From an uncultured Gammaproteobacteria bacterium (GTDB taxonomy: Bacteria; Patescibacteriota; Microgenomatia; Woykebacterales; RBG-16-39-9b), in NCBI GenBank assembly GCA_965231125.1, contig OZ246414.1, positions 81,739 through 145,738 on the forward strand: a stretch of DNA of 64,000 bases, written 5' to 3'. The notes below the pieces were generated by a model. It did not search any database. It was not told where the DNA came from and worked only from the letters and a program-made list of their open reading frames with translations. Both the position numbers and the translations under genes were made by a program. Every line of letters begins with the position of its first letter. Within the stretch, counting starts at the first letter, position 1. This document shows, in pieces, positions 919 through 50,753 of this stretch.

Positions 919-993
919 TCCGGCGTAGCTCAACGGTAGAGCAGGCGACTGTTAATCGTCTGGTTGTAGGTTCGAATCCTACCGCCGGAGCCA
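919..993 (+). tRNA. tRNA-Asn (anticodon GTT)
   Basis: Cloverleaf read by eye: acceptor tccggcg/cgccgga, anticodon loop ct-GTT-aa, T-arm ggttcgaatcc, encoded CCA. Confidence 0.9.
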
Positions 994-1094
994 AACTTTT
1001 TAGCCTCATTTTTTTATTTCCTGAAATACTCTCTTTTATTTAAATAGGAAAAGTGAAATGATTGACGGGTAAAACTGTAAGGGGGTGATTATTT

Positions 1095-1367
1095 ATGCCA
1101 ATAGGAACGTTCTTAGATTCAATGCCATCCGTCTTATTTATCTCAACCCATATAGTACTTCTTTTGATTGGTTTGTGGGCTGTCAAAAAAGCAATGGATA
1201 TGAAACTACCTTATGCCTCAGCTTTTTGGCTTTATCCGGTTGTGCACGTTGGATTCCTTGCCTACTTTGGAGGACTCTTTACGTTTAAGATGGCTGTCTT
1301 GCTCGAGCAAATGCTCATAGTGGTTATGGTACTTTGGATAGTTAGTAAAGCTCAGAAAGCAAGTTAG
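1095..1367 (+). CDS. small 3-TM membrane protein, paralog A (unknown function)
   Basis: 90 aa, GGGGGTGA SD 8 nt upstream. 75/90 residues identical to the ORF at 2038-2310. Confidence 0.6.
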   Translation: MPIGTFLDSMPSVLFISTHIVLLLIGLWAVKKAMDMKLPYASAFWLYPVVHVGFLAYFGGLFTFKMAVLLEQMLIVVMVLWIVSKAQKAS

Positions 1368-1392
1368 GAATAAATTTTAACGATTTTTTTAA

Positions 1393-1426
1393 GAAAAACG
1401 ATTCGTGAGGGTCGTTTTTCTTTTCG
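1393..1426 (+). terminator. rho-independent terminator of paralog A
   Basis: gaaaaacga / tcgtttttc stem followed by a T-run. An almost identical hairpin follows paralog B. Confidence 0.6.
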
Positions 1427-1520
1427 TAAAAATTCCAATCAAATGTTCTAAGTGCGTCAAGTAGCGGGAGCCATGAACCAGTCACTTAGTTCCGGTTCAC
1501 GGCTTTACTAAAAACCCAGG

Positions 1521-1847
1521 TCACATCCCAGGTATTGGCAGCATTTCAAAGACATCAATAGAGGTTCCTGGTCTTTTTAAATGAGGATGCGTTTTCAGAA
1601 GTTCCAAGAGAGCTTCTTTCGATTCGCCTTCAACAATAGAGTATCCAGAAACTGGATTATCACCTTCTGTTATTCCTTCTGCGGTAACTCGTTTCACTAC
1701 CTGGAGTGGTAAGCCAAAATCCACTTTGAAGTTTTTACTAACCTCGTCTCTCCATTTCAGCCATTCATCCATACTGGCCTTTACCTGCTCGGGGCCAGCA
1801 TTAGACATTACTTCGCTTGCTGACTCCTCTGAATTGTAGAAAATCAT
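1521..1847 (-). CDS. hypothetical small cytoplasmic protein (108 aa)
   Basis: ORF with no TM segment. I recognise no family with confidence (an alpha/beta-barrel YCII/Dabb-like guess only). Confidence 0.45.
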   Translation of the reverse strand: MIFYNSEESASEVMSNAGPEQVKASMDEWLKWRDEVSKNFKVDFGLPLQVVKRVTAEGITEGDNPVSGYSIVEGESKEALLELLKTHPHLKRPGTSIDVFEMLPIPGM

Positions 1848-1888
1848 AAATTTCGCCGTAATACACCTCCAGTTAGTTTAACTACTTC

Positions 1889-1913
1889 CATGGTAGTGCT
1901 ACCATGCTAAAAT
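1889..1913 (+). promoter_or_regulatory. perfect palindrome catggtag-tg-ctaccatg abutting an extended -10 (TGcTAAAAT); candidate operator plus promoter for paralog B
   Basis: 8+8 bp palindrome at 1889-1906, TG 1905-1906, TAAAAT 1908-1913. Lies between divergent genes. Confidence 0.4.
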
Positions 1914-2037
1914 CTCAAGCTTAAGTTACAACATAGGGATTTTAGCTTTGGCTTCTACCTTTAAAAATAACCACTACTCTTTTTTAAATATTCATATAAA
2001 ATGTTTGTTAGGCGAATAATAAAGGAGGTGATATTTT

Positions 2038-2310
2038 ATGCCGATAGGAACATTTCTAGATTCAATGCCTACAATCTTATTTATCTCGACCCATGTGGTT
2101 TTTCTATTGATTGGTCTGTGGGCTGTCAAAAAAGCTTTGGATATGAACCTACCATTTGCGAAGGCTTTTTGGCTCTATCCGTTGGTGCACATTGGATTTC
2201 TTTCCTACTTTGGGGGTATCTTTACGTTTAAGATGGCGGTTCTGCTCGAGCAAATACTTATAGTTATTATGGTTGTTTGGATAGTTAGTAAAGCCCAGAA
2301 AGCAAGTTAA
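2038..2310 (+). CDS. small 3-TM membrane protein, paralog B
   Basis: 90 aa, AAGGAGGTGA SD. Paralog of 1095-1367. Confidence 0.6.
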   Translation: MPIGTFLDSMPTILFISTHVVFLLIGLWAVKKALDMNLPFAKAFWLYPLVHIGFLSYFGGIFTFKMAVLLEQILIVIMVVWIVSKAQKAS

Positions 2311-2335
2311 AAATAGATTTTAATGACTTTTTGAA

Positions 2336-2370
2336 GAAAAACGATCCAAGACGGGTCGTTTTTCTTTTGT
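2336..2370 (+). terminator. rho-independent terminator of paralog B
   Basis: Same gaaaaacga / tcgtttttc stem plus T-run as at 1393-1426. Confidence 0.6.
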
Positions 2371-2486
2371 TATGAAAAAGTATAAAAGATTCTAACGTCA
2401 TCTATTAAGCGGCGGCAGTGGTTTTTAACCTCCAATTTTCCCAGATTACTCTTTTATTTCCTTAGACAAAGTGAGATGATTTGTAA

Positions 2487-3368
2487 GTGGATGAAAAAAC
2501 GAATTCACCAAGCGGCTCTAAACGAAACTTAGTCTTGATTGGTTTAGGGGTGGCAATTCTTGCTCTTGCTTCGACTACTTGGGTTGCTTCGCAATATAAA
2601 ACTACAGCTTTAGAAAAAACTCCTACAACTTCAAAACAAACGAGGGCTACCAAATCTCCAAGCAAGGGGACAACCAAAACTACTGTTCCGAGTAAAGCAA
2701 AAACCAAAACTACAGTTATTGGCCCTGGGGAATCAGCCGAGGTCGACTGCGGCGTTGGTACTGGTGGTACCGAACCTCGATTAGATAGCAGTTCTAACCT
2801 CAAATTTACAACAATCGGTGGGGAGAAGAGAACTCTGAATGTCTACTTAGTGGATAAAGATTATAAACGTGCCGCTGGAGCTCGTCTGAAATGGACATTT
2901 GGGGATTGGGGCTTTGAGGGAAGTCTAGAAATTGATGGGTGTAGCGCGACTTTCACGCCACCCACTTCTATAGGTACAGCTTACAATGCTGGTGCCCATT
3001 TTTATATCAAGGCTGTCTTGCCTACCCCGCCTCCTTCTAAACCAGTTAGTCCAGGTGAGGCAGGACCAATTTTTGCTGGATATACACTTGAACAATCTAT
3101 ACTTGTTTATGACAGCAACAATGGCGGTTCGACTGGCTGTTATGATCCGGCCGGAGTTGCTATTTCTATTAATTCAGTCTCCACGTTCAGCAACGTGCAA
3201 ATAGTAGTAAATACTCCAAGGTACACTGGCCGTAGCTACAGCAGTCGAGTTGCAACAGTCCGTGATGGTCCAGGAACGTACGAGATATACTTCTATGTCA
3301 ACGGTTCTTTGTATGACTCTACCACCTCGCAAGTTGGGGAATGCCAGTTAGCAACGGTAAAACGGTGA
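2487..3368 (+). CDS. N-terminally anchored secreted protein with Thr/Lys-rich linker (unknown function)
   Basis: 293 aa, GTG start, one N-terminal TM (LVLIGLGVAILALAS), low-complexity TTSKQTRATKSPSKGTTKTT linker. Confidence 0.5.
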   Translation: MDEKTNSPSGSKRNLVLIGLGVAILALASTTWVASQYKTTALEKTPTTSKQTRATKSPSKGTTKTTVPSKAKTKTTVIGPGESAEVDCGVGTGGTEPRLDSSSNLKFTTIGGEKRTLNVYLVDKDYKRAAGARLKWTFGDWGFEGSLEIDGCSATFTPPTSIGTAYNAGAHFYIKAVLPTPPPSKPVSPGEAGPIFAGYTLEQSILVYDSNNGGSTGCYDPAGVAISINSVSTFSNVQIVVNTPRYTGRSYSSRVATVRDGPGTYEIYFYVNGSLYDSTTSQVGECQLATVKR

Positions 3369-3386
3369 AATTGATAAAGGTTGCCC

Positions 3387-3986
3387 ATGAAGAATAACAC
3401 AGGATTTTCAGTCATCATTCTATTGATCATTTTGGGACTAGTAGCGGGCGCTACGGTGTATGTTGCTAGGGAAAACCCCTCGATATTTAGAACCGTAGAA
3501 CAGAAACTCAAGACAATGATAACCCCAAAGCCACCGATTGGTAATCTAACACCCTCTCGCGACCTTAAGGGAACCTGGACTTCGGCCATTAGAGGCAAGG
3601 GAATCCAATTATACGGCCAATTCGCCACCGGACCTAGTACTACGAAAGTTTACGAAGATGGCGATGTTAAATTAGTAATAAATACGGTGAAGAACAATAT
3701 TGCTTATGGAAATATACGTTACACCAATCTGTGCTCTTCTGGCCAAACGTCTGTTCCCGGCTATGGCTATATTTCTGTACCAAAACAGTGCACCAGCGAT
3801 TCAGGGGCTAGGCCAATTCAAATAAGAGTTAGTGGTAGCCGGCTGGATTTTGGGACAATTGCCACTGGCAGTGCCACTTTTTCTATGCAGGGCAGTTATA
3901 CAACCCACATTATCTCTGGAACAATGACGATGACCACCTCTTATGGTGTTATTAAGGGGGAGTTCCATCTTAATCGTGTGCGATAG
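3387..3986 (+). CDS. N-terminally anchored secreted protein (unknown function)
   Basis: ATG at 3387 (MKNNTGFSVIILLIILGLVAG). The ORF track starts 2 codons earlier at TTG 3381. Confidence 0.5.
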   Translation: MKNNTGFSVIILLIILGLVAGATVYVARENPSIFRTVEQKLKTMITPKPPIGNLTPSRDLKGTWTSAIRGKGIQLYGQFATGPSTTKVYEDGDVKLVINTVKNNIAYGNIRYTNLCSSGQTSVPGYGYISVPKQCTSDSGARPIQIRVSGSRLDFGTIATGSATFSMQGSYTTHIISGTMTMTTSYGVIKGEFHLNRVR

Positions 3987-4083
3987 CTAGATCAATTGTT
4001 GGATAAAAATTTCTAACATCGTTCACGACTCGGAGCCACGATTTTTAGCCTCAAATTTTAATACCTGGGAAGTCTGTTGCCGG

Positions 4084-4812
4084 CTAGCGGATTTGGAAGT
4101 TGACGGTTACGGTATAGGTAACTTCTTGCTCACCAGTTAATAAAACTGGAGGAGTAGAAGTTGAGGAGTCGCTACTAGGTACTGACTTTCCCTCTAGGGT
4201 TATAGGCCCACCAAACTGTGGTTCGGAAACTGAAATGACCTTCCCTACCTTAACTCCCAGCTCTTTCGCAGTTTGATCAGCTTTCGATCTTGCGTCAGAC
4301 AAGGCTTTACCACGAACCTCGCTTTCTAACTGTTTGCGGGTTTCATTGGCGAACGTACTTTGAGGGGAAACGCTATAAAGCGGACCTGTAATTGTTAAAT
4401 AATCAAGAATTTTTTGGGCTAAAACTTTATCGTTGATGGTAACTGTCAATGAGAACTGGGCAGTGATCTCATCAGTTTCTCGACCAGTTAACGGTTCGTA
4501 CCTTTTCTGGGTTGTAACATTAGTCTGAATAGATTTATCAGCAACTCCAAGTTTCTTTAACTTTGCCACCACACTATTACCTAGTTTTGAAACCTCGGAA
4601 ATAGCGGTGGTAGAATCTTTAGCCTTTTTCTCATAAACCGGTGAAAAAATAAATTCGTCTGGAGCTGCTTTGAGCGTTGCTTCCCCTTGGATTGAAATAG
4701 TTCGCTTTTCTGTACTTCCCCAAGGTCGCCAAACAAAAGCCATGGAAACAATAACAACTAGCAGTACCGCGCTTAAAATCCTAAAATCGAGTCGAAGGTT
4801 AATTGAACCCAT
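4084..4812 (-). CDS. SIMPL/DUF541 family periplasmic-type protein
   Basis: 242 aa, N-terminal TM. The overall pattern (ISIQGEATLKAAPDE ... TVNFQI) resembles SIMPL domain proteins. Confidence 0.6.
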   Translation of the reverse strand: MGSINLRLDFRILSAVLLVVIVSMAFVWRPWGSTEKRTISIQGEATLKAAPDEFIFSPVYEKKAKDSTTAISEVSKLGNSVVAKLKKLGVADKSIQTNVTTQKRYEPLTGRETDEITAQFSLTVTINDKVLAQKILDYLTITGPLYSVSPQSTFANETRKQLESEVRGKALSDARSKADQTAKELGVKVGKVISVSEPQFGGPITLEGKSVPSSDSSTSTPPVLLTGEQEVTYTVTVNFQIR

Positions 4813-4915
4813 TTCCTTAATGCTAGCATATTTTTAGGAAAAAGTATAAAAATTTCTAACTTCCTTTACCAAACGGGGCCAATCATAGGCATTACAGACT
4901 TGATATAATTTCAGT

Positions 4916-5416
4916 ATGAAGAGTCAAGAGAAGAGGTACCGAGTAGACTCGTTTGTCGGAATAAAGAAAATACTTGACGAGGCCGGTGCGAAAAAAGGAA
5001 AAGAGATTGTCACGACACACTATTACGCCCAGCAAGATGGTAATGATGTCGTCAAGTTGGTGGATTATGACAATCGAAACGAGATTCATATTCTTAAAGA
5101 ATCAGATGGAAATTTTTCTCTCACTGAAAAAATACCAGTAGAAAGTGTCGATGTGGGTTTAAAATGGCTTGAAGACAAAGGGTACGAAACAGTTGACGTT
5201 GTTAAGATGATTTATACAGACTACGAATACAAAGGTGGTTTGGTCGGTCTGTACATAATTGACGATTTTCTCCATTCTGTAATTCTAGATTTTCCGCCCG
5301 GACAACATAAAGCGATAGGAAAAGGGTTTGGGTTGAGTAACGCCGAAATCATTAGCGTTCCGTATAATAAATATCTTAAAGAAATTGGTCGTCTCCGCTC
5401 AATGAAACTTAGTTAA
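4916..5416 (+). CDS. hypothetical protein, possibly CYTH-like
   Basis: 166 aa. Weak resemblance of the N-terminus (EKRYRV..L...GA......Q.D.YY) to CYTH/class IV cyclase folds. Low confidence. Confidence 0.3.
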   Translation: MKSQEKRYRVDSFVGIKKILDEAGAKKGKEIVTTHYYAQQDGNDVVKLVDYDNRNEIHILKESDGNFSLTEKIPVESVDVGLKWLEDKGYETVDVVKMIYTDYEYKGGLVGLYIIDDFLHSVILDFPPGQHKAIGKGFGLSNAEIISVPYNKYLKEIGRLRSMKLS

Positions 5417-9360: not shown

Positions 9361-9450
9361 TGGCGGAGGGGGTGGGATTTGAACCCACGATACCCTTGCG
9401 GGCATGCACGCTTTCCAAGCGTGTGCACTAGGCCACTATGCGACCCCTCC
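9361..9450 (-). tRNA. tRNA-Ser (anticodon GGA)
   Basis: Reverse complement ggaggggtcgcatagtgg...ct-t-GGA-aa...long variable arm...gggttcaaatccc...ccctccgcca. Confidence 0.9.
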
Positions 9451-9484: not shown

Positions 9485-9513
9485 TTGACTAGACAAGCAA
9501 GCAGTAGTATTAT
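9485..9513 (+). promoter_or_regulatory. sigma-70-type promoter TTGACT-N17-TATTAT for the GC-rich ORF
   Basis: TTGACT 9485-9490, 17-nt spacer, TATTAT 9508-9513. Confidence 0.45.
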
Positions 9514-9568
9514 TTGTTCCACAAGGACAGAGGTTTGTTTGGTCGGGCAAAAAGGAAGGAAGGTGCAC

Positions 9569-10051
9569 ATGAAACTCCGAGGAATCTTGACGATGCTATT
9601 CGCGATGTTCGCTTTCGCGCTCACCATCGTCGCGGCTCTCGCCGGTACGAGTGCTTCGTACGCGGTGCCGGCAACACAAGGCATCAAGACGACAAGCCAC
9701 CGACGCAGCTTGCTGGCAACGCTGCTGTTACCTGTAGCGTTCCTCGCAGGTCTACTGCTGACAATCACCAACATCAACGTGACGACGTCAACCGACACAC
9801 CGACGGACACACCGACCGCAAAACACCGCAGATGGGGCCTGTTCGCTCTGATCACTGGAGCAATCGGCGCTCTCATGCTGCTGTTACGACTGTCGACAAC
9901 CGGCACCGACGATCGAGTTCCGATCGAACGTCTGCAAACGCACCTTGACCAGAGCAGGTCGGGCGCGGGGACGAAGGGCGACGGCGACGTTCATCACAAA
10001 GAGGTCAACTACACGACTCCTGTTCCGGTAGCGGCTCCCGCCGGCACGTGA
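9569..10051 (+). CDS. GC-rich membrane/secreted protein (160 aa, unknown function)
   Basis: ATG 9569 preceded by ggaaggaagg. Signal-like MKLRGILTMLFAMFAFALTIVAALA, two further TM segments and a TDTPTDTPT repeat. Composition visibly GC-richer than the neighbours. Confidence 0.5.
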   Translation: MKLRGILTMLFAMFAFALTIVAALAGTSASYAVPATQGIKTTSHRRSLLATLLLPVAFLAGLLLTITNINVTTSTDTPTDTPTAKHRRWGLFALITGAIGALMLLLRLSTTGTDDRVPIERLQTHLDQSRSGAGTKGDGDVHHKEVNYTTPVPVAAPAGT

Positions 10052-10215
10052 ACATCGACGATCGGTACGTAAGCGCTCCTTTCCTTCCTTTCCGGTCGGA
10101 ACTGAGGCGCTCTAGCTAACTACTTAACCCGCTGGTTATTAAGTAGTTCAGTAACCAAGAACCAGCAAGTTTTCATCAGGACGTCCTGGCCCGACCACCA
10201 ACCTCGTCCTGTCTC

Positions 10216-10256
10216 AGCCCACCTTGTGTTTTCACCAGGTGGGCTTTACTTTTTTA
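10216..10256 (+). terminator. terminator hairpin closing the GC-rich insert (overlaps the Nudix stop)
   Basis: agcccacct / aggtgggct 9-bp stem followed by ttactttttt. Confidence 0.55.
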
Positions 10257-10716
10257 ATAACTCTCTTGCTTTTCGGAAAATTTCTTTATCACTTTTGAAG
10301 GAGAGGGTTCCTTCAACCTCATCGCTTGGTATCCACTGCGCGTCTTCCATTTCCCAATCGTGATCCGCTGGATCACCGGACAAATATTCCATCAGAAAAT
10401 ACGTAACTTTTTTCTTAACTAGCTGGCCTTCGAGTTTGTAGAAATATTCTATTGGTGAGAATTCTTGGACTATCTTTGCTTCCACTCCGCCTTCTTCTTT
10501 TACTTCGCGGACGGCAGTTGTTTGTCTGTCTTCGCCCGGATCAATAAGACCTTTGGGAAAAACCCAACCGTGGTGTTGGGAATGCTTTGTAAGGAGAATA
10601 TGAATTTGACTGTCCTCTTTTTTTAGTCCGGCTGGACGCAAGCTCCGCTTTAGTCGAGGACGTAAGCTCCGCTTATAGACAATGCCGCCAGCGCTTTTTT
10701 CAAATTTAAGAGCCAT
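10246..10716 (-). CDS. Nudix hydrolase
   Basis: Nudix box GLIDPGEDRQTTAVREVKEEGGVEA. Carries an N-terminal repeat-encoded insert KRSLRPRLKRSLRPAGLKK. Confidence 0.85.
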   Translation of the reverse strand: MALKFEKSAGGIVYKRSLRPRLKRSLRPAGLKKEDSQIHILLTKHSQHHGWVFPKGLIDPGEDRQTTAVREVKEEGGVEAKIVQEFSPIEYFYKLEGQLVKKKVTYFLMEYLSGDPADHDWEMEDAQWIPSDEVEGTLSFKSDKEIFRKARELLKK

Positions 10717-10950: not shown

Positions 10951-10958
10951 CTAATATT

Positions 10959-11029
10959 GTCCCAGTAGCTCAGTGGAAAGATCGCTACGCGCTCTGCGAC
11001 CACTTCGTAGTCTAAAAGCGCAAAAACAT
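10959..11029 (+). pseudogene. tRNA-like 5' fragment fused to the dispersed repeat (not a functional tRNA)
   Basis: gtcccagtagctcagtggaaagatcgc mimics the acceptor and D-arm of the adjacent tRNA-Arg(CCG) (gtccctgtggctcaatggatagagcac). It continues as acgcgctctgcgacc... with no T-arm. Confidence 0.45.
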
Positions 11030-29609: not shown

Positions 29610-32600
29610 CTAAGCGGCTACAATCACAAATCCGCTATTGGGTTCTGGCACTGCGCTCGTAACTAGGTTGTTGTGGCCCATATAGACCATCTTGATGTAC
29701 CTGATGTAACGCTGCTTCTCCTCCTCTCCTATGTTCCTAATCGCTTCCCGTAGAACGTTATTGATTTGGTCCCAGCGATATTTGTCGACGATCATTTCCG
29801 CAAGCTTCATAGAGTATCGGGAGTCAATTTTTGCCCAGCGGGCAATAGTGACAGTCAGGCGATCAACGTCCATCTCCCTCATCGCCTTGCCTCTCTGGAC
29901 TCCATCTTGCTCTTTGAACCTAGAGAGCCACCAACTATTACCCTTTAGGCTCTTGGCGCTTTCCTTAACGAACTCGAGTTCGTCTGTCTCACTCCAGTGA
30001 CCAAGCTCCCGCGCCCTGGCTTTACCGAGACTGTTGTCGAACACTCGGTTCCACCAAACCCATTCCCCATCTCGAACAAATTTGGACTCTGACTCAGCAT
30101 CGTCCCCGATTCGGAAGGGGTAACCCTCGCTGATCCAGGAACCGTAGGTGCCTCCGGAGAAAGCGTGGGCCCGACCCAAAAGGGTGAGCTCCATCTCCCT
30201 CTCTTCCTGGTAAGCGATCGCTGGTCTGCGCAGATCCCAAATCATTCGCTCCATACCGATCCGGCGACCACCAGGAAGCCCGAGATCGAATCTGCCCTTC
30301 GGAATTACGATGGTGGGTAGGCCTTCGGTGTTCCGCCGGACTACGGGGACCACCTGCTGCACCCGGTTAGTCATCGCTTCTTGCAAAGCGTACTGAACCC
30401 TAGCCCGCTTTGGCTCCTCGGGCTGGTGAGCCCACATTGCGTACATGAAGTTACGCGCTGCAGTGGCGTTGTCGTAGTTCACCCGAATGAAGCTATCATA
30501 GCCGTACGTATTTGGGTTGGACAAGCGCACGTTAAGCACCGCCAACGCATTCATCTGACCTAGAATCGCCTCGTTCTGCAGCCAAACGGTGATAGGGTCT
30601 CGGACGGCAAACTCGATGGTACGGGTCCAATCGTCCTCGTCTCGGTAGTTGCGTACCCTGCTGGTGAACTCCTTAACTAGCGTGTCAAAGTCGGGCATCG
30701 CCCCATCACCAGCCGCCGAGTTTAGCCCTCGCTCGCGCTTGAGCTGATCCAAGGCGACTGCCATTGCCTCGGCGTACAAAGTTGCCTGAGCACCGTCGTG
30801 AGGCATCTTCTGCCAGGGTTCCTTGAAGAACCAGGCCCAGTCAAGTAGCGAGCGACGAAGCTCAACCCTTTCCTGGGACACCTCCACGAAACGCTCAAAT
30901 ATCTCGTTTCCGAGAACGTACGCTTCCCTTTCGTCCCGAGTCGGTTCTTTGATCTCCGAGAAGACAGCCTGCCATTCCTCATGAACAAGCTTGTCCGGTA
31001 TCTCTTCTGGACTAGGGATCGGCGCAAAAGCCTCCCCCCGATGCAGTTTGCCCAGAAGGTGGGCCTGGAACCGAGCGCACCGATGCAGAATCATGTACCG
31101 CCGGTCGCAGGTATAATCGATGCTCTCCCACTCACCACCGAAGTTGTTCTGGACATACCGAGCTACGTCCGCATCTTCCATATTCCAACCCTCACGTTTG
31201 GTCCGCATAGAGCGGGCCATCTGCCAGAATTGAATACGGTGCAGACGCTTTCTGCGTCGCTCGATATTTTCCGCCCTGTAGCGGAAGGTGGAGTGATCCA
31301 CCACTGGTTCCCAGCTACCGTAGGAAGGCTGGTAAACTAGCTTCCCTGTCTCCTTATCAACCTTGGATTTACCAGGACGGTATACCCAAGTCACGGTGGA
31401 TGGTTGCTCCACGTACACCGCGAGCTGCACGAGCTCCTTGAGAGCCTGTGCCTGGCTGACTGGATCCGAGGTTTGCGCCCCAAAAATATCCGCCAGAAGC
31501 CAAGGCTCGTTCATCTGCTCGCTTGGATACGAACGGTCCATGTTTTGGTCCACGAAGCTATCCTGATCGCGGAGCCAACGTGCCCACCATTTCTTTAGGG
31601 CTTTGCGACCCTTTGTCTTTTCGAGCTCTATCATCTCTTCTTCGGTGGGTATGCGGAATCCGCTAACTACCTCACCAGTTTTAGGATCGCGTTTCTGCTT
31701 CCGACGGACCGTTTCTTCGAAGTATTTCCACGTCGCCCCGTAACCGAAGTACTCGGTTCCATCCTCATCCGTATAGTAGAGGATTTTCTCCGAACACACT
31801 TTGTGAGCGAGCATGGTGCGGCCTTTTATGTTCAGGTCGCCCACGTCGATTTCGTACTTCTCAGTGTGCGGATTGTAGTGCAGGCCTTCGGGAAATTCCT
31901 GAAAGACCCCTTCACGAACGTTTGCACCATTGCGGTAATACTCCGCTTCCACGCGGCTGCGGAGTGCCTCTTTTTCAGCTTCAGACAGCTCTTCGAGCTC
32001 CCCGGTTTCGGGGTTCTCCACGAAGTAATACCACTGATCTGGTTCCTTCGGGCGAAGCTTCAGCCGAAGCGCGCGGCGGTAGACGTTGTCTTTCTCCCGC
32101 CATTCATCCATTGGTGCGTTGGGTTTGTGCGGTGGAGGGACTTTATTCAACCCTTCGTTGTTCACTGGAAGGTCTCCAGCTCCAACAGCAGGGTAGAACA
32201 CTCGATAGCGAGTAAAGTCCTCTCTCTTCGCGATATCCTCCGCGTGCAACTTGCGCATAACTTCCAGCCGGGAAGAGCCAGGGTTCTTTTTGAGAGCCCG
32301 ACGCATCCGGTGGTAGCTACGCGACACACGCCGAATTTCCCGGTGGTACATCCAGTTAGGATAGCGTCCACCGGGACCAATGTCTTGACGAACTCTAGCG
32401 TGGTTCAGCTCGGGCGAAAGAACGAACATGTTCGTGTCGATACGAACCTGCCCAAGAGAAACCTCAGAGTTCTCTATTTCTTGTTGAAGTTTCTGTACTT
32501 CTTCCCACATGTGCTTTTGTTTTACGGTGTCCGAGATTCCAAACGAGAGAGTGCTGATGAGAAACGGGTTTTTTCCCTTACGCTCAATAGCGTAGCATAG

Positions 32601-32945
32601 AATCGGTTCCCGCTCTCCCATTGGGAATTCGGGCTTTCCGTCTCTGCCAACCCGCCATACCCCGTCCCTTGGTACAACGACTCGCTCCTTAGGCTTGGCT
32701 GTAACCACTTCCATGAAGAAGCGGCGGCCACCCCTCTGCCCGTTGATCTGGAAACCTTGTTCCGAATACTGCGTCTCAGCCAGAGCTTTGAGCTCCTGCT
32801 CTAGCGATGGGAGACCAGCGTATGCCCCCGATCCATATTCGGCTGGGGTTATTACCAGATCCGGTATTCTACCGAACCTAGTTCCGGGAAGAGCTTCCTC
32901 GAACTCTTCGCCATAACCGTCACCGTCCCCATTACCATTTGTCAT
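29610..32945 (-). CDS. large GC-rich orphan protein (1111 aa, no recognisable domains)
   Basis: Uninterrupted ORF. Best start is ATG 32945 (MTNGNGDGDGYGEEF) with GAGGAGGA 8 nt upstream. No signal peptide or TM. Arg/Glu/Trp-rich. Confidence 0.7.
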   Translation of the reverse strand: MTNGNGDGDGYGEEFEEALPGTRFGRIPDLVITPAEYGSGAYAGLPSLEQELKALAETQYSEQGFQINGQRGGRRFFMEVVTAKPKERVVVPRDGVWRVGRDGKPEFPMGEREPILCYAIERKGKNPFLISTLSFGISDTVKQKHMWEEVQKLQQEIENSEVSLGQVRIDTNMFVLSPELNHARVRQDIGPGGRYPNWMYHREIRRVSRSYHRMRRALKKNPGSSRLEVMRKLHAEDIAKREDFTRYRVFYPAVGAGDLPVNNEGLNKVPPPHKPNAPMDEWREKDNVYRRALRLKLRPKEPDQWYYFVENPETGELEELSEAEKEALRSRVEAEYYRNGANVREGVFQEFPEGLHYNPHTEKYEIDVGDLNIKGRTMLAHKVCSEKILYYTDEDGTEYFGYGATWKYFEETVRRKQKRDPKTGEVVSGFRIPTEEEMIELEKTKGRKALKKWWARWLRDQDSFVDQNMDRSYPSEQMNEPWLLADIFGAQTSDPVSQAQALKELVQLAVYVEQPSTVTWVYRPGKSKVDKETGKLVYQPSYGSWEPVVDHSTFRYRAENIERRRKRLHRIQFWQMARSMRTKREGWNMEDADVARYVQNNFGGEWESIDYTCDRRYMILHRCARFQAHLLGKLHRGEAFAPIPSPEEIPDKLVHEEWQAVFSEIKEPTRDEREAYVLGNEIFERFVEVSQERVELRRSLLDWAWFFKEPWQKMPHDGAQATLYAEAMAVALDQLKRERGLNSAAGDGAMPDFDTLVKEFTSRVRNYRDEDDWTRTIEFAVRDPITVWLQNEAILGQMNALAVLNVRLSNPNTYGYDSFIRVNYDNATAARNFMYAMWAHQPEEPKRARVQYALQEAMTNRVQQVVPVVRRNTEGLPTIVIPKGRFDLGLPGGRRIGMERMIWDLRRPAIAYQEEREMELTLLGRAHAFSGGTYGSWISEGYPFRIGDDAESESKFVRDGEWVWWNRVFDNSLGKARARELGHWSETDELEFVKESAKSLKGNSWWLSRFKEQDGVQRGKAMREMDVDRLTVTIARWAKIDSRYSMKLAEMIVDKYRWDQINNVLREAIRNIGEEEKQRYIRYIKMVYMGHNNLVTSAVPEPNSGFVIVAA

Positions 32946-33086
32946 TTGTGTTTCCTCCTCGCTGTTGAACCACCTCGACTTAGTCGAGGGTGCTGACCGG
33001 CAAACTTTCTTTGTGAGAACTGTTTCCCACTTTGGTGTTTGCTGGATCAGCAGCAACACCAAGGGGCGGCCGAAGGCCAGTTTTAA

Positions 33087-33113
33087 ATTATAAGACGCGG
33101 GACATATGTCCAA
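33087..33113 (-). promoter_or_regulatory. candidate promoter (TTGGAC-N15-TATAAT) overlapping palindrome ggacatatgtcc
   Basis: Minus-strand TATAAT is the reverse complement of 33087-33092. TTGGAC is the reverse complement of 33108-33113. The spacer is short (15 nt). Confidence 0.3.
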
Positions 33114-33399: not shown

Positions 33400-33817
33400 C
33401 TCTGGGTGACAAATTTCTTATCAACCAGAGCCCACCTTCGGGGTCCTATGAAGGGACACCTCAACTCGGAGGTGGCTCTGGATTATTTAGTTTAATTTTA
33501 AGTTCGCCCTTACTCATTTTTTCTAGCCTCTACTGACTGGCCGAATTTTAGCATAACTTAGCTTAAATGTCAACTATAAGTCATTTTGTAACTTCGAAAC
33601 CTGCGAGCTCTTGGTTTCTCAGGTACTCTCACGTCTCGCGCTAGGCGTCTTAACGCCTAGCTAAGAGCGCATCGGTTTTTATTCGCGCAGTACGATACAG
33701 TTTGACTCGGTTGCTTTTAGCCTCCCCATGAGCCATAATAATCCCTACAATAGTCGTAAAAAGCTATTTTTCGGCGAAGGATCAGCGAAGCGAGCCGAAG
33801 TATTGTAACCAAAAGTT

Positions 33818-46286: not shown

Positions 46287-46661
46287 ATGTTAGGTAAGGG
46301 TGTGAATCGAGAGTTTCAAGAACAGTTTGGGAGGCAGTGGCGGTGCACGTGTAAAGCGCAGTTTAGACCGGAGAGTTTAGAGATTTTGTCAGAATCGGAG
46401 AATTCCCTGCTCGCCCATTATCAATGCCCTAAATGTGGGAGGGAACAGATGTTAGCAGCAGCAATTTCTGAAGAAGAAACAAACGAACAAACCTCAGAAA
46501 AATTGATCAAGTTACCGAAAACTACAGTTACAACTGACGATGTGCTGGATATAAAAGCTATGGTTTCGAAAATGAAATTAGCCTCTATAAAAGCACTTGG
46601 CCGAGAGCGCCAAAAACGTTCCAGCATCACTATCTCCCGGATAACTTCTCCGAAAAGCTAA
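46287..46661 (+). CDS. zinc-ribbon-containing small protein
   Basis: 124 aa. CTC...CPKCG. TGcTATACT extended -10 lies 8 nt upstream of the ATG. Confidence 0.4.
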   Translation: MLGKGVNREFQEQFGRQWRCTCKAQFRPESLEILSESENSLLAHYQCPKCGREQMLAAAISEEETNEQTSEKLIKLPKTTVTTDDVLDIKAMVSKMKLASIKALGRERQKRSSITISRITSPKS

Positions 46662-46705
46662 TCTGACAGCTGTCGGATTGACAGCCCCAATATAATAGAG
46701 GACGT

Positions 46706-47425
46706 ATGGAAAAAATTGCACTGAACGCCTCGGCGCGAAAGATTTTAGGGAAAAAAGTTAAAAACCTGCGCAAAGAAGGGTCTATCCCCGCGAATCTTTT
46801 TGGAAAAGATATAAAATCGCAAGCTTTGCAAGTGGATGACAAAGATTTTCGTAAAGTGTTTAGGCAGGCCGGTGAAACCGGAATAGTGGAAATAAAAGAA
46901 GATAAAGAGACTCATCCAGTGTTAATTCATAATGTGCAGCTGGACCCAAAGACAGACCTAATTCTTCACGTTGATTTTCATAAAGTAAACTTAAAAGAAA
47001 AGATTACTACCCACGTGCCCGTTGTTTTGGAAGGCGAGTCTCCAGCCGCGAAAAGCGGTGTAGGATTAGTTTTGCAAACTCTGAACGAACTTGAAGTAGA
47101 ATCTTTGCCGGCAGATATTCCCCACGAAATAAAAGTGGACGCTTCTAAGTTGACAGAAGTAGGGCAGTCGATCCACGTTAAAGATTTAAAAATCGATAGA
47201 GAAAAAGTGGAAGTTAAGAATGATCCAGAAGCAACGGTTGTAAATGTGCAAACCGCGGAAATGAAAGAAGAAGTTGAAGAGACGCCAGTTTCGCCAGAAG
47301 AGGTCGAAGCCATTGCCGAAAAGGGTGAAAAAGAAGAGGCCGCAGAAGGCGAAGAGGGTAAAGAAGCTCCAACAGACGAGGGGGCTAAGGAAGAGCCTCA
47401 AACTAGCGAAGAAATCCCAGCATAA
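46706..47425 (+). CDS. rplY: 50S ribosomal protein L25/general stress protein Ctc with acidic C-terminal tail
   Basis: 239 aa: LNASARKILGKKVKNLRKEGSIPANLFGK, HPVLIHNVQLDP. Confidence 0.85.
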   Translation: MEKIALNASARKILGKKVKNLRKEGSIPANLFGKDIKSQALQVDDKDFRKVFRQAGETGIVEIKEDKETHPVLIHNVQLDPKTDLILHVDFHKVNLKEKITTHVPVVLEGESPAAKSGVGLVLQTLNELEVESLPADIPHEIKVDASKLTEVGQSIHVKDLKIDREKVEVKNDPEATVVNVQTAEMKEEVEETPVSPEEVEAIAEKGEKEEAAEGEEGKEAPTDEGAKEEPQTSEEIPA

Positions 47426-47492
47426 TAACCTAGAGTTGGTTAGTGAAAAAGTCCCTAGTTCGAGAAAATAGTTGTAAACTATTCTCGAACGC

Positions 47493-47543
47493 AGGATTCA
47501 CAGTAGCTGGCTCGCCAAGCGAGGTATAAGCTACGAGAATCCT
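47493..47543. repeat. hairpin with the same outer stem (aggattc...gagaatcct) as 26456-26503 but a different interior
   Basis: Outer stem 47493-47499 / 47537-47543. Inner stems gtagc/gctac and ctcgc/gcgag. Lies 5 nt upstream of the -35. Confidence 0.5.
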
Positions 47544-47547
47544 ATAG

Positions 47548-47576
47548 TTGACAAATCCTTTAAGTTGTGTTAAAAT
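47548..47576 (+). promoter_or_regulatory. TTGACA-N17-TAAAAT promoter of the 47.6-48.5 kb GC-rich unit
   Basis: TTGACA 47548-47553, TAAAAT 47571-47576. Confidence 0.5.
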
Positions 47577-47582
47577 ACACCC

Positions 47583-47825
47583 ATTAACAATTGAAAATAG
47601 ATCGCTAACGCGCTCTGCGTCGCTAGCGCTCCTAATGGTTACAAGGTAAAAACTTTTAAAGGCACTTTGTAACTGGAGTTGAAGTTATAGCTAACTGTCA
47701 TTACGGAAACGTCCTGAAGTCTAGAACAATTCGAGTCCAGTTACCAGGTGCCTTTGTGTATCTAGGCGGTACGTCTTGCTGACCCGGCAAGCTATCGTTA
47801 AACAAATTATGGGTATGGAGGAACG
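47583..47825 (+). promoter_or_regulatory. long (~245 nt) structured 5' leader containing a copy of the dispersed repeat
   Basis: Repeat copy 47594-47638. Long-range stem aaaggcac..taactgga (47658-47677) / tccagtta..gtgccttt (47735-47754). SD atGGAGGa 47816-47822. Confidence 0.4.
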
Positions 47826-48152
47826 ATGTCAGTCAGACACCCCCTGTCAGACGTCGAAAGTTTCGAAAAGAAAGGTGTTAGGTATGTTCGGGTTTGCCAC
47901 GTAGGAAAGGGATCATTCCACTTCGAAGTCTACAGACGAATCAAACGAAGTGGGAGGCTCCATATGATTATCAGACCAGAGGCATACTCTCCTATCAGTG
48001 GGGAACTTCGCCCTTCTTCATCAGCGGTGTTCGTGGCTGAAGCGCAAGAGGATCTGTTCTGGCGTATGGTGCTCCCTTTCACAGACGCTGTAAACAGGTT
48101 GCCCGACGACGTGTCAATACAATTCATAGGCTGGACAAAGTATGGTGTGTAG
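47826..48152 (+). CDS. GC-rich hypothetical protein (108 aa)
   Basis: ATG with GGAGGA SD. No family recognised. Confidence 0.45.
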   Translation: MSVRHPLSDVESFEKKGVRYVRVCHVGKGSFHFEVYRRIKRSGRLHMIIRPEAYSPISGELRPSSSAVFVAEAQEDLFWRMVLPFTDAVNRLPDDVSIQFIGWTKYGV

Positions 48153-48264
48153 TGGTAATAATCCACAATCAAGCTTTGCTTGATCCCCAAATCCTAAGCA
48201 AATCTCACATACGGTGTCGTCGCTGTCGTTAGCGGCTGACAAAATAGTCAGCTAGAAAGGACGA

Positions 48265-48480
48265 ATGGTGATGGATCAGTTCACGCGGTTAGTTCTCGGG
48301 TGTATTGGCACGGTGATAGTTGCCATTGCTACACTTTGGCTGATCGATGGCATCTTCTGGACGCAAGTCTCGCCAAGGGCACTCATAATCGCGCCGGCGG
48401 TGATCGTTCTAGCGGTTGGAGGAGTCATGGTTCTAACCGCTGTGCTAACAGGAGACAGGGCACCGAGGGTACGACTGTAG
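48265..48480 (+). CDS. GC-rich small 2-TM membrane protein (71 aa)
   Basis: Two hydrophobic helices. AAAGGA SD. Alternative start at ATG 48271. Confidence 0.4.
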   Translation: MVMDQFTRLVLGCIGTVIVAIATLWLIDGIFWTQVSPRALIIAPAVIVLAVGGVMVLTAVLTGDRAPRVRL

Positions 48481-48503
48481 AAGGAGTAAAATCGGTGCCA
48501 CAG

Positions 48504-48546
48504 AAAGACCACAAAGCGAGTAATCGCAGCGTGGTCTTTTTATTTT
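48504..48546 (+). terminator. terminator of the GC-rich unit, overlapping the valS stop codon
   Basis: aaagaccac / gtggtcttt stem followed by ttatttt. Confidence 0.6.
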
Positions 48547-50753
48547 GGCCACGCGGAAACCATGATGGAATCATCCTTTTTTAGTCCGTTAGGACGCAGA
48601 GCGCGAAGCGATCTATTTGGTAACTTCTGCCAAAGATCTTCGGTTATGTACGGCATGAAGGGGTGGAGTAGTCGCAAAGATTCTTCAAGGACTTTTTCCA
48701 AAACCGGCTGAGCTTCGTCTCGTCGGGATTTTGAACTTTCAATATATTTATCGGCAAAGCGGTGCCAGACGAAATCGTAAAGCTCTCCGACCGCCTGACC
48801 AAAACGATAATTCTCGATTGCTTTGGTTACAATTTCTCTTGTTTTCTCCAATTCCTCCAAAATCCATTTGTCATCCAGGTGAGTGGGTGTAGGGTGTAGG
48901 GTATAGGGTTTAGGGTTTTTTGATTCGGGTTCATTCGAGTTATTATTCGCGTCCATTAGAATATACCGGCCGATGTTCCAGAGTTTATTAGTGAAATTGC
49001 GCATTCCTTTTATTTTATGTTCGCCAAGGTTAGCATCATTGCCTGGACCAGTTCCGAAGACGAGGGCCATCCGGACTGCGTCCGCACCGTATTTTTCCGC
49101 AACATCCAGCGGATCAATGACATTATTTTTACTCTTGCTCATTTTTTGACCCTTTTCGTCGCGAACCAGGCCATGTAAGTAAACCGTTTCAAAAGGGACT
49201 TTACCGGTCACATAAAGACCAAGCATGATCATGCGCGCGACCCAGAAGAAAAGGATATCGTAGCCAGTTTCCATTACAGAGGTTGGGTAAAATTTCTTAA
49301 AATCGGCTTCATCTTTTTGTCCGTAACCCAAAGTGGTAAACGGCCATTGCCCCGAGGAAAACCAAGTATCGAGGGTGTCCGGATCCTGTTCAAACTTGGT
49401 TGAGTCGCAATTTGCGCACCTAGTCGGGGGTTCAACTGAGACAAACTCCCCATTTTTCATTTTGCATTCTTCATTCTTCATTTCCTGACAGTAATAAACT
49501 GGCAGGCGGTGGCTCCACCACAGTTGCCGGGATATACACCAATCGTGAATATTCTCCATCCAATTAAAATAAATTTTTTCGAAACGGGGTGGAATGATTT
49601 TGATTTTGTTACTCTTAACCGCTGCCAGGGCGTCTTTAGCCAAATTCTTGCCGCTCTTACCGGTTTTGTTGACAGCAACAAACCATTGTTTGGAAACTAG
49701 AGGCTCGACGACAGTATCAGAGCGTTCGCAGACACCGACACTAGTCTTGTGATGCTGCGTTTTTTCCAACAGGTCCAGTTTTTCCAGATCGGTAACGATT
49801 TGTTTGCGGGCGGCGTATTTATCCAAACCAGAGTACTTACCTGCCTCTTTGGTCATTTTGTCGTCAAAACCGATGACTTGAATTTGGGCTAGTGAGTGAC
49901 GCTGTCCGACTTCATAATCGTTCGGATCGTGTGCTGGTGTTATCTTCACCGCTCCACTACCGAACTTTGGGTCAACGTAGGAATCTTTAATAATAGGAAT
50001 CTCCCGGTTCATCAACGGTAGGATGGCTGCCTTTCCAACTAAAGTCTTGTAACGTTTATCGCCCGGGTTAACCGCGACCGCTGTGTCGCCCAGCATTGTT
50101 TCCGGTCGGCTCGTGGCTACAGTTACAGTTTCTTTAGAATTCTTAACTGGATAACGGATAAACCAAAGGTTCGATTCTTTTTCTTTGTGAAGCACTTCGA
50201 GATCGGAAAGTACAGTCGCGCAGCGCGGACACCAATTAACCATTCGGCTGCCGCGGTAAATTAACCCGTCGTCATAAAGGTCTTTGAAGGTTTGGTAAAC
50301 TACTTTGGAGATTTCTGGATCAAGAGTAAATTTTTCGCGAGACCAATCTAAGCTAAATCCCATTGCCCGTAGTTGGTCGTACATTTGCTTTTTATTTTCT
50401 TGGGTGAATGCGTAAGTTTGCTTGAAGAATTCTTCCCGGCCAAGGTGGTGGCGAGTCTTACCTTGCCTTTCCAAAACCTCCCGTTCGTAAACGACTTGGG
50501 TTTGGATGCCGGCGTGATCTGCTCCTGGCAGCCACAAAGTCGAATCCCCAAGCATCCGGTGGTAGCGGATTAAAATATCCTCGATGACGTACATGGCGTG
50601 GCCGATGTGGAGCCGACCGTTGGCGTTTGGCGGAGGTAAAATAATTGAATAAGGTTTGCCTTTAGGATTGGTCTCTGGCTTGAAAAACTCCCCCTTTTCC
50701 CAAAGGGAATACCATTTGCTTTCAACTTGTTTATGCTCGTAAACTTTTTCCAT
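48540..50753 (-). CDS. valS: valine--tRNA ligase (short form without C-terminal coiled coil)
   Basis: 737 aa. PPPNANGRLHIGHA (HIGH), KMSKSKNN (KMSKS). Carries the repeat-encoded insert NRSLRALRPNGLKK near the C-terminus. Confidence 0.95.
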   Translation of the reverse strand: MEKVYEHKQVESKWYSLWEKGEFFKPETNPKGKPYSIILPPPNANGRLHIGHAMYVIEDILIRYHRMLGDSTLWLPGADHAGIQTQVVYEREVLERQGKTRHHLGREEFFKQTYAFTQENKKQMYDQLRAMGFSLDWSREKFTLDPEISKVVYQTFKDLYDDGLIYRGSRMVNWCPRCATVLSDLEVLHKEKESNLWFIRYPVKNSKETVTVATSRPETMLGDTAVAVNPGDKRYKTLVGKAAILPLMNREIPIIKDSYVDPKFGSGAVKITPAHDPNDYEVGQRHSLAQIQVIGFDDKMTKEAGKYSGLDKYAARKQIVTDLEKLDLLEKTQHHKTSVGVCERSDTVVEPLVSKQWFVAVNKTGKSGKNLAKDALAAVKSNKIKIIPPRFEKIYFNWMENIHDWCISRQLWWSHRLPVYYCQEMKNEECKMKNGEFVSVEPPTRCANCDSTKFEQDPDTLDTWFSSGQWPFTTLGYGQKDEADFKKFYPTSVMETGYDILFFWVARMIMLGLYVTGKVPFETVYLHGLVRDEKGQKMSKSKNNVIDPLDVAEKYGADAVRMALVFGTGPGNDANLGEHKIKGMRNFTNKLWNIGRYILMDANNNSNEPESKNPKPYTLHPTPTHLDDKWILEELEKTREIVTKAIENYRFGQAVGELYDFVWHRFADKYIESSKSRRDEAQPVLEKVLEESLRLLHPFMPYITEDLWQKLPNRSLRALRPNGLKKDDSIMVSAWPK

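Follow-up and report, generated by a model that had tools for sequence, protein, structure and literature searches.

What kind of element fills the 1.1-kb gap between the convergent rplY (L25/Ctc) and valS genes of an uncultured bacterium, and does it control the genes behind it or act in its own right? The gap lies in a 64,000-nucleotide stretch of contig OZ246414.1 (GenBank assembly GCA_965231125.1, positions 81,739 to 145,738 of the forward strand), referred to here as the window. The original prediction had placed in it a single structured leader of approximately 245 nucleotides (nt), carrying a dispersed repeat, a long-range helix, gccgg-containing stems and a Shine-Dalgarno (SD) sequence, upstream of a 108-amino-acid (aa) open reading frame (ORF); the promoter, repeat, helix, stems, SD sequence and ORF were all found in place. 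On the evidence of its fold and of covariation among its homologs, the element, designated RNA A, is a genuine conserved structured RNA of candidate-phyla-radiation (CPR) bacteria and is uncatalogued. We assign a probability of about 0.5 to the reading that RNA A is an island-borne leader or attenuator, giving a short RNA and metering the read-through that reaches the cargo genes behind it. The features of RNA A are as follows; related loci are cited by handles of the form L004.

47583-47762, plus strand: RNA A, predicted primary short transcript, approximately 175 to 180 nt (approximately 125 nt in relatives without P1)
47594-47638, plus strand: variable hairpin P1, which is a copy of the dispersed repeat R
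47637-47647, plus strand: GUUAC box (GGUUACAAGGU), able to pair with 47663-47673 (CACUUUGUAAC) in the 5' strand of the rod hairpin
47658-47755, plus strand: 98-nt rod hairpin (the long-range helix plus inner helices), -42.6 kcal/mol alone
47693-47719, plus strand: near-invariant apical core AACUGUCAUU/CCUGAAG around a covarying stem of 3 to 4 bp, with a GAAA tip at 47703-47712
47753-47762, plus strand: degenerate U-tract (UUUGUGUAUC) after the rod hairpin

These parts follow one another in a set order: a 5' tail beginning GUUAACAAUU or GUUCUUUGAAAA, an optional variable hairpin, the GUUAC box, the rod hairpin and the U-tract. The minimum-free-energy fold of positions 47583 to 47840 has an energy of -79.7 kcal/mol (z = -3.74), with none of 200 shuffled sequences as stable, and the helix between 47658-47677 and 47735-47754 forms its base. 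Searches with nhmmer and BLAST located the rod hairpin and its promoter downstream of the L25 gene in L004, L006, L008 and L009 and elsewhere in L005, and a scan of metagenome contigs with the exact pattern GTAACTGG-N45-75-CCAGYTACSAGGTGC yielded a further 51 contigs, so that the helix recurs in five related genomes and 51 metagenome contigs. One metagenome copy of the locus (L001:2950) differs from the window at 47723 by a single unpaired hairpin base (GTCTTGAAC versus GTCTAGAAC).

When 44 distinct hairpin sequences from the genome loci and metagenome contigs were aligned (MAFFT), 97.9% of the cells at 27 base pairs were paired, compared with 94.4 ± 0.3% after shuffling; there were 47 compensatory cells, compared with 14.8, and the covariation score was 0.197, compared with 0.131. 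None of 500 shuffles matched any of these values, and sliding the pairing register reduced pairing to 29 to 52%. The outer 17 bp are largely set by the search pattern; the informative covariation is therefore that of the inner helices, where exchanges were seen in the apical stem (GC/AU/CG/UA), in a C-G to A-U pair inside the invariant core and in the middle stem (AU/GU/GC). The core keeps tandem pyrimidine-pyrimidine mismatches, while the hairpin tip varies (GAAA, GUGA, UUGUAU, UUAA), is GNRA in many members and has a 15-nt insertion in L004. The proposal of a structured RNA with a conserved helix is thus upheld.

The same alignment bears on whether this imperfect palindrome might work as DNA, serving the mobile island for recombination or attachment in the manner of an attC site or a transposon-end hairpin. 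In favor are its position at one border of an insertion, the inverted copy of repeat R at the opposite end of the island, and the 50.5 bits that its covariance model, because the element is palindromic, also reaches on the minus strand. The plus-strand score is, however, twice as high (98.7 bits, for the single copy in the 64-kb window), and the G-U to G-C and A-U to G-U exchanges (81 one-sided cells) preserve pairing on the plus strand only; it is because of the G-U to G-C exchanges and the higher plus-strand score that RNA A was assigned to that strand. Integron cassettes and their attC sites offer the closest comparison, with a palindrome of approximately 100 nt beside short, mostly orphan ORFs and toxin-antitoxin pairs, but the integron core sites RYYYAAC/GTTRRRY are unmatched (..GTAAC/GTTACCA), the RNA A hairpin lies between a conserved promoter and a U-tract and is strand specific by its G-U pairs, and there are no hairpin arrays, only the single copy in the window, and no IntI among the inspected ORFs. 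Furthermore, no partial hairpin duplicates that could represent att scars were found at any island end, and units in L060 have the same ends without the hairpin, which is therefore not needed for insertion. We consider a DNA-level role very unlikely.

A comparison with Rfam had been proposed with the original prediction, and no family matches. Rfam 15 returned nothing in 47300-48700 at the gathering score; at E ≤ 10 the best match was a plant microRNA precursor (E = 0.38), and RNA A was unmatched across 50 homologous or related loci in gathering and permissive scans. No description of RNA A was found in the literature searched. A highly diverged copy of one of the universal hairpin RNAs, the signal recognition particle (SRP) 4.5S RNA or 6S RNA, would fit a hairpin of approximately 100 nt with its own promoter, a GNRA tip in many members and a neighborhood of tRNA and rRNA genes; nevertheless, there was no match to either at E ≤ 10 in the window region or at E ≤ 1 in 20 homologous loci. 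The SRP helix-8 motif (GGAA..AGCAG; a GNRA tetraloop with ..AGG/AGCA..) is absent, the core being AACUGUCAUU/CCUGAAG with a varying tip and no RF00169 match. The approximately 180-nt rod, central bubble and end-closing stem of 6S RNA contrast with a 98-nt, almost fully paired rod that is too short and lacks the bubble. Moreover, close relatives lack RNA A at this locus, and L046 has two copies of it. We therefore regard this identity as exceedingly improbable. Identifications of the core with SRP, 6S, 5S, T-box, hammerhead, K-turn or sarcin-ricin elements were likewise rejected, on motif checks and the Rfam outcome. A T-box leader has no RF00230 match to support it, the downstream genes are orphans, and valS is convergent rather than downstream. 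A closing stem between the 5' tail and the 3' flank was rejected when own-partner and cross-partner energies proved equal, as was a small conserved peptide within RNA A or after motif B, a second motif described below, since the reading frames are not conserved. A phage origin was rejected when no match was found among viral contigs or phage genomes.

What would transcribe RNA A? The sequence upstream of it contains the following.

47548-47576, plus strand: sigma-70-type promoter TTGACA-N17-TAAAAT with an extended TG, 11 of 12 consensus matches
47493-47543, plus strand: hairpin H2, outer stem AGGATTC/GAATCCT around TAGCT..AGCTA
47458-47490, plus strand: hairpin H1 (GTTCGAGAA..TTCTCGAAC), read from the sequence, the first part of a conserved module that precedes the promoter

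This promoter is the only sigma-70-like plus-strand site within 46500-49000, and a TTGACW-N17-TAtAAT promoter lies at equal distance in all 42 homologs with enough upstream sequence, accompanied in nearly all of them by a CCYATAG box; its position suggests that transcription of RNA A starts near 47583. In the window the box (CCTATAG, 47541-47547) adjoins the -35 element and is overlapped by the 3' arm of H2. Homologs of the upstream module were identified in L044 and at L004:10944-11030 (nhmmer E values of 3e-5 and 8e-4), and the H1 and H2 hairpins are common to the window, L044, L030 and this second L004 site. The outer stem of H2 is altered on both arms (GGATCC/GGATCC in L004 and GTATCC/GGATAC in L044), although only three sequences are involved.

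The sole other CCTATAG-type promoter in the window, at 33583 on the minus strand, also drives a GC-rich ORF. There, a structured leader of approximately 470 nt (33583-33113, minus strand) and a 1167-aa ORF (29610-33113, minus strand; GC 0.52 to 0.58) lie behind a CTTATAG-TTGACA-N17-TAAAAT promoter, and an inverted repeat (26451-26497/33337-33383; 47 nt, 89% complementary) brackets the region of this ORF. Elsewhere in the window, a membrane-protein ORF with a GC content of 0.57 (9560, ATG, to 10051; listed from 9485) carries a TTGACT-N17-TATTAT promoter of its own, adjoins tRNA-Ser(gga) (9361-9450, minus strand) and is followed by hairpins and a terminator (region 9485-10240).

At its other end RNA A has the form of an intrinsic terminator, a stable stem followed directly by a U-tract. 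At least five T residues are found in the 8 nt after GGTGC in 36 of the 42 homologs; the tract of the window is interrupted (CTTTGTGT), which should raise read-through. The GUUAC box is a possible antiterminator: its pairing with the 5' strand of the hairpin can reach 8 to 11 bp in nearly all homologs, and folding of the growing transcript predicts that the GUUAC-box hairpin (-10.3 kcal/mol) forms before the -42.6 kcal/mol terminator can.

The genes behind RNA A provide further evidence for a leader. In 35 of 44 distinct loci an AGGAGG-type SD sequence and an ORF start follow the hairpin by 23 to 340 nt (by at most 74 nt in 19 loci), and no TTGAC-N16-19-TAnnnT promoter was detected between hairpin and ORF in those 35; because no consensus promoter intervenes, these ORFs could be transcribed only through the hairpin. 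They are mutually unrelated, and most have no Pfam family, with two encoding alpha/beta hydrolases; their GC content is 0.49 to 0.59, compared with 0.35 to 0.50 in the upstream flank. The only recurrent gene, which does not occur in the window, encodes a multi-pass membrane protein of approximately 190 aa with no Pfam or NCBIfam match, in nine loci (L023, L024, L025, L027, L034, L045, L046, L055 and L006). L008, L040, L061 and L063 likewise have small hydrophobic ORFs behind RNA A.

We propose that the strong promoter transcribes RNA A at the 5' end of a small inserted island, and that the rod hairpin and U-tract would act as an intrinsic terminator at which most transcripts stop, giving an abundant RNA of approximately 125 to 180 nt. 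The remaining transcripts would read into the promoterless cargo (motif B, ORF108 and ORF71) and end at a terminator at 48504-48546. The apical core (AACUGUCAUU/CCUGAAG) is a likely, predicted factor-binding site, and the invariance of the core and the heterogeneity of the cargo favor a protein or an RNA over a metabolite as this factor. The GUUAC box may pair transiently with the 5' strand of the hairpin, giving an antiterminator conformation.

RNA A thus resembles, by its putative function, the intrinsic-terminator attenuators and leaders of mobile elements that yield short stable RNAs. Terminated riboswitch leaders that act as small RNAs (sRNAs) and the CI RNA immunity of phage P4 are examples of such leaders. 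The likeness lies in a promoter-proximal conserved structure, a hairpin and U-tract before promoterless genes, a competing upstream pairing and a location in an inserted element. Unlike those systems, the terminator stem of RNA A is itself the 98-nt conserved structure, the cargo varies by locus, and there is no similarity to any Rfam family, including C4/CI RNA.

Several observations weigh against a metering leader. Pairing of the GUUAC box reaches 77.0%, compared with 75.7% in shuffled alignments (51 of 500), and its covariation is not significant; we treat the switch as hypothetical because the covariation is no better than that of shuffles. A 17-bp stem followed by U5 should terminate efficiently, and the cargo may simply be poorly expressed. 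The transcript ends, termination, regulated read-through and the effector are all deduced from sequence, the heterogeneous cargo offers no hint of the signal, and the diversity of homologs is under-sampled because the search pattern fixes 21 fully specified bases. Finally, the genes that follow in L004 (a toxin-antitoxin pair), L030 and L037 either come with promoters of their own or are encoded on the opposite strand; RNA A looks autonomous there, like a stand-alone gene.

This last arrangement, with no promoterless ORF behind RNA A in those three loci, suggests an sRNA gene whose product acts in trans (as a ribonucleoprotein, base-pairing or immunity-type RNA), the downstream genes merely exploiting leaky termination. 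Such a gene would account for its own promoter and terminator-like end, for the extreme conservation of paired and unpaired core positions, which is typical of protein-bound RNAs, for its frequent position beside stable-RNA genes (tRNA-Cys in seven loci, tRNA-Asn and 5S rRNA) and for the two diverged paralogs 3.2 kb apart in L046. It accounts less readily for the tightly spaced promoterless SD-ORF arrangement in 35 of 44 loci, and no partner or target was identified. Moreover, the covariance model detected no RNA A near the L25 gene in the close relatives L002, L003, L007 and L010 to L012; since these lack it there, RNA A is not a fixed housekeeping gene at the rplY-valS site. We consider the trans-acting sRNA a possible reading, to be held with less confidence than a metering leader acting in cis. 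Both halves of the suggestion that the element is a riboregulator or a noncoding RNA thus survive; a thermosensor and a classical metabolite riboswitch are not favored.

The region between the rod hairpin and the first ORF is a second element, with the following features.

47765-47814, plus strand: motif B, a pseudoknot-like hairpin before the SD sequence (its P1 47765-47771/47793-47799; its P2 47775-47779/47787-47791)
47782-47785/47811-47814, plus strand: possible pseudoknot of motif B, with an A-rich linker

The gccgg stems of the original prediction correspond to P2 of motif B. Six lineages have this motif, 13 to 18 nt 3' of the rod hairpin, and the DNA examined contains no further copy; 93.7% of its cells are paired, compared with 84.7% after shuffling (0 of 500), with three compensatory pairs in P2, although the alignment holds only six sequences. 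RNA A and motif B are accordingly two separable motifs. The idea of one leader of approximately 245 nt dedicated to the 108-aa ORF stands insofar as the transcript would start at the predicted promoter, but it fails in that there are two motifs and in that the same RNA precedes unrelated genes.

Motif B also raises the prospect of a metabolite riboswitch, with RNA A, motif B or both as the aptamer and the hairpin with its U-tract, or the SD sequence, as the expression platform. A small pseudoknot with an A-rich linker placed before an SD sequence is the architecture of several small riboswitch classes, and motif B is a small hairpin-type pseudoknot of this kind; the conserved internal loops of RNA A and its pairing of a terminator with a candidate antiterminator point in the same direction. 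The downstream genes, however, are unrelated orphans, hydrolases and small membrane proteins that form no coherent pathway, the hairpin tip tolerates a 15-nt insertion (L004) and varied loops, and no Rfam riboswitch matched even at E ≤ 10. A riboswitch is, in our view, improbable.

Returning to the metering leader, the cargo that it would control and the genes that flank the gap are listed here.

46706-47425, plus strand: ribosomal protein L25/Ctc gene, rplY (Pfam E = 1e-20)
47817-47821, plus strand: SD sequence GGAGG, upstream of ORF108
47826-48152, plus strand: ORF108, ATG at 47826, alternative start at 47964
48141-48215, plus strand: remnant of motif D, a 3' element of the island or cassette (GTGTAGTGGTAA-hairpin-CCCCAAATCCTAAGCAAATCTC); the window copy lacks the 3' half
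48265-48480, plus strand: ORF71, a predicted two-helix membrane protein, GC 0.55
48504-48546, strand unassigned: stem AAAGACCAC/GTGGTCTTT followed by a T-run, read from the sequence
48540-50753, minus strand: valS, convergent with the L25 gene

The best match of the L25 protein (73% identity) is in a Candidatus Woykebacteria genome, which places the window in the Patescibacteria. ORF108 exists as described, although it is only mildly GC-rich (0.49, compared with approximately 0.43 in the flanking genes). Its codon usage is atypical for the window, and the database record of it uses the start at 47964, giving 62 aa. No homolog was found among 5.8 billion proteins except its own record, and neither Pfam nor NCBIfam gave a match; by these searches ORF108 is an orphan. 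No family match was found for ORF71. The stem at 48504-48546 reads as a terminator common to the island transcript and the convergent valS; it was missed by the terminator scan because its loop exceeds 8 nt.

How did this unit come to lie between rplY and valS? In L007 the stop codons of the two genes are only a few bases apart (an empty site), and positions 47426 to 48539 of the window are therefore an insertion. The junction is also filled in other genomes, by 1.1 kb in L004, as in the window, and by 4 to 5 kb with a GC content of 0.5 to 0.6 in L009 and L008, and RNA A is always at the left edge of the insert (window, L004, L008 and L009). The unit as a whole thus forms the left end of an island inserted between rplY and valS. 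Toward its other end, motif D consists of a variable GC-rich hairpin followed by CCYAAGCAAATCTC-loop-GAGGTTT and often by a terminator, CTAGCTGAAAGGCTAGTTTTTT. A homolog at L024:1711-1823 has a compensatory hairpin (TCAAGC/GCTTGA versus GACAGC/GCTGTC), and L060 holds four copies of motif D. More than 15 loci have the CYAAGCAAATCTC..GAGGTTT box behind a GC-rich ORF.

Other loci carry such units in series. In L060 there are four successive units, each with a leader and a GC-rich ORF, with RNA A in one and short leaders in the others; a tRNA-3'-like remnant with a CCCATAG-box promoter stands before three of the four, while a CCTATAG box and a -10-like element are all that the fourth has, and three of the four end in motif D and a terminator. 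L046 has two diverged whole units 3.2 kb apart on one contig (858-937 and 4100-4181), each consisting of a tRNA-like remnant, a promoter, RNA A and a different GC-rich ORF. RNA A follows tRNA-Cys directly in four loci, is near tRNA-Cys in three more, and follows tRNA-Asn in one locus and 5S rRNA in another (tRNA-Cys or tRNA-Asn lies directly upstream in L021, L052, L054, L057 and L069). The window copy has no flanking tRNA repeat, only hairpins H1 and H2 and repeat R. No integrase or recombinase was recognized among the inspected ORFs of the short flanks, some of which were scanned against Pfam.

By this context RNA A resembles the tRNA-targeting islands. Tycheposons are tRNA-targeting integrative islands with partial-tRNA scars (bioRxiv 10.1101/2020.12.28.424599). 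Like them, the units of loci related to the window lie behind a tRNA-Cys or tRNA-Asn gene or a degenerate tRNA-3'-like remnant, occur in series (L060 and L046), carry variable cargo and belong to streamlined genomes. Unlike tycheposons, they showed no integrase in the flanks examined, the units measure only approximately 0.8 to 1.5 kb, each RNA A-type unit has its own promoter, leader and terminator, and the window copy lies between rplY and valS rather than at a tRNA gene. It can be envisioned that RNA A is the signature leader of undescribed GC-rich, promoter-bearing mini-islands ("cassettes") in CPR genomes, with modular ends and insertion beside tRNA, 5S rRNA or ribosomal-protein genes, in which it would serve as a cis- or trans-acting transcriptional gate or immunity factor for new genes. 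The cassette would run from a tRNA-like or hairpin module through a CCYATAG-box promoter, leader A, optionally motif B, and the cargo to motif D and a terminator. Both the mini-islands and this order are put forward tentatively and, taken together, are rather doubtful.

Independently of RNA A, the region 919-5000 of the window looks like the scars of successive integrations. Behind a tRNA-Asn gene (919-993), the 3' end of this gene recurs in degenerate form together with TTTTTAGCCTCA at 4003-4060, weaker copies occur at 2382-2417 and 4846-4881, and a 300-nt direct repeat (1056-1355/1999-2298; 81%) also lies in the region.

The dispersed repeat that the transcript was predicted to carry is real and corresponds to P1 of RNA A, a variable hairpin absent in L004 and different in L006, L008, L009 and L042. 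The 11-mer core of repeat R occurs three times, compared with 0.56 expected, and further copies in the window are these.

10609-10656, minus strand: copy of repeat R
10975-10998, plus strand: copy of repeat R
48580-48618, minus strand: copy of repeat R

The last of these is an inverted, in-frame insertion of 11 to 12 codons in the C terminus of valS (RSLRALRPNGLK), which is absent from the aligned valS sequences of relatives (tblastn: L004, L008, L007 and L002). A truncated valS was considered and rejected: relatives end at the same ..WPK, and the window copy instead has the in-frame insertion. The repeat (approximately 33 nt) is also present in tandem and in frame in a Nudix-like ORF (RLKRSLRPAGLKKEDS), a tRNA-like pseudogene (10957-11028) contains a copy, and two other genomes have copies at L004:10907 and L048:4262. 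Its identity as a tRNA-Arg anticodon arm was rejected, the only resemblance being a weak one to a D-arm. The Rickettsia palindromic elements, which are 100 to 150 nt long, are similar in that repeat R is a short dispersed repeat found in frame in protein genes (valS and the Nudix-like ORF) and in RNA genes; repeat R differs from them in its length of approximately 33 nt, its sequence and its CPR host.

RNA A is a new family outside the catalogued RNA families, and its genomic role is unusual and possibly novel. CPR bacteria cannot be grown alone, and, to our knowledge, almost nothing is known about RNA-based regulation in them. In genomes that are otherwise compact and AT-rich, both RNA A and motif B are linked to insertion hot spots with GC-rich orphan genes. 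If RNA A does gate acquired genes, it would provide a direct view of how foreign DNA is taken up and controlled in reduced genomes.
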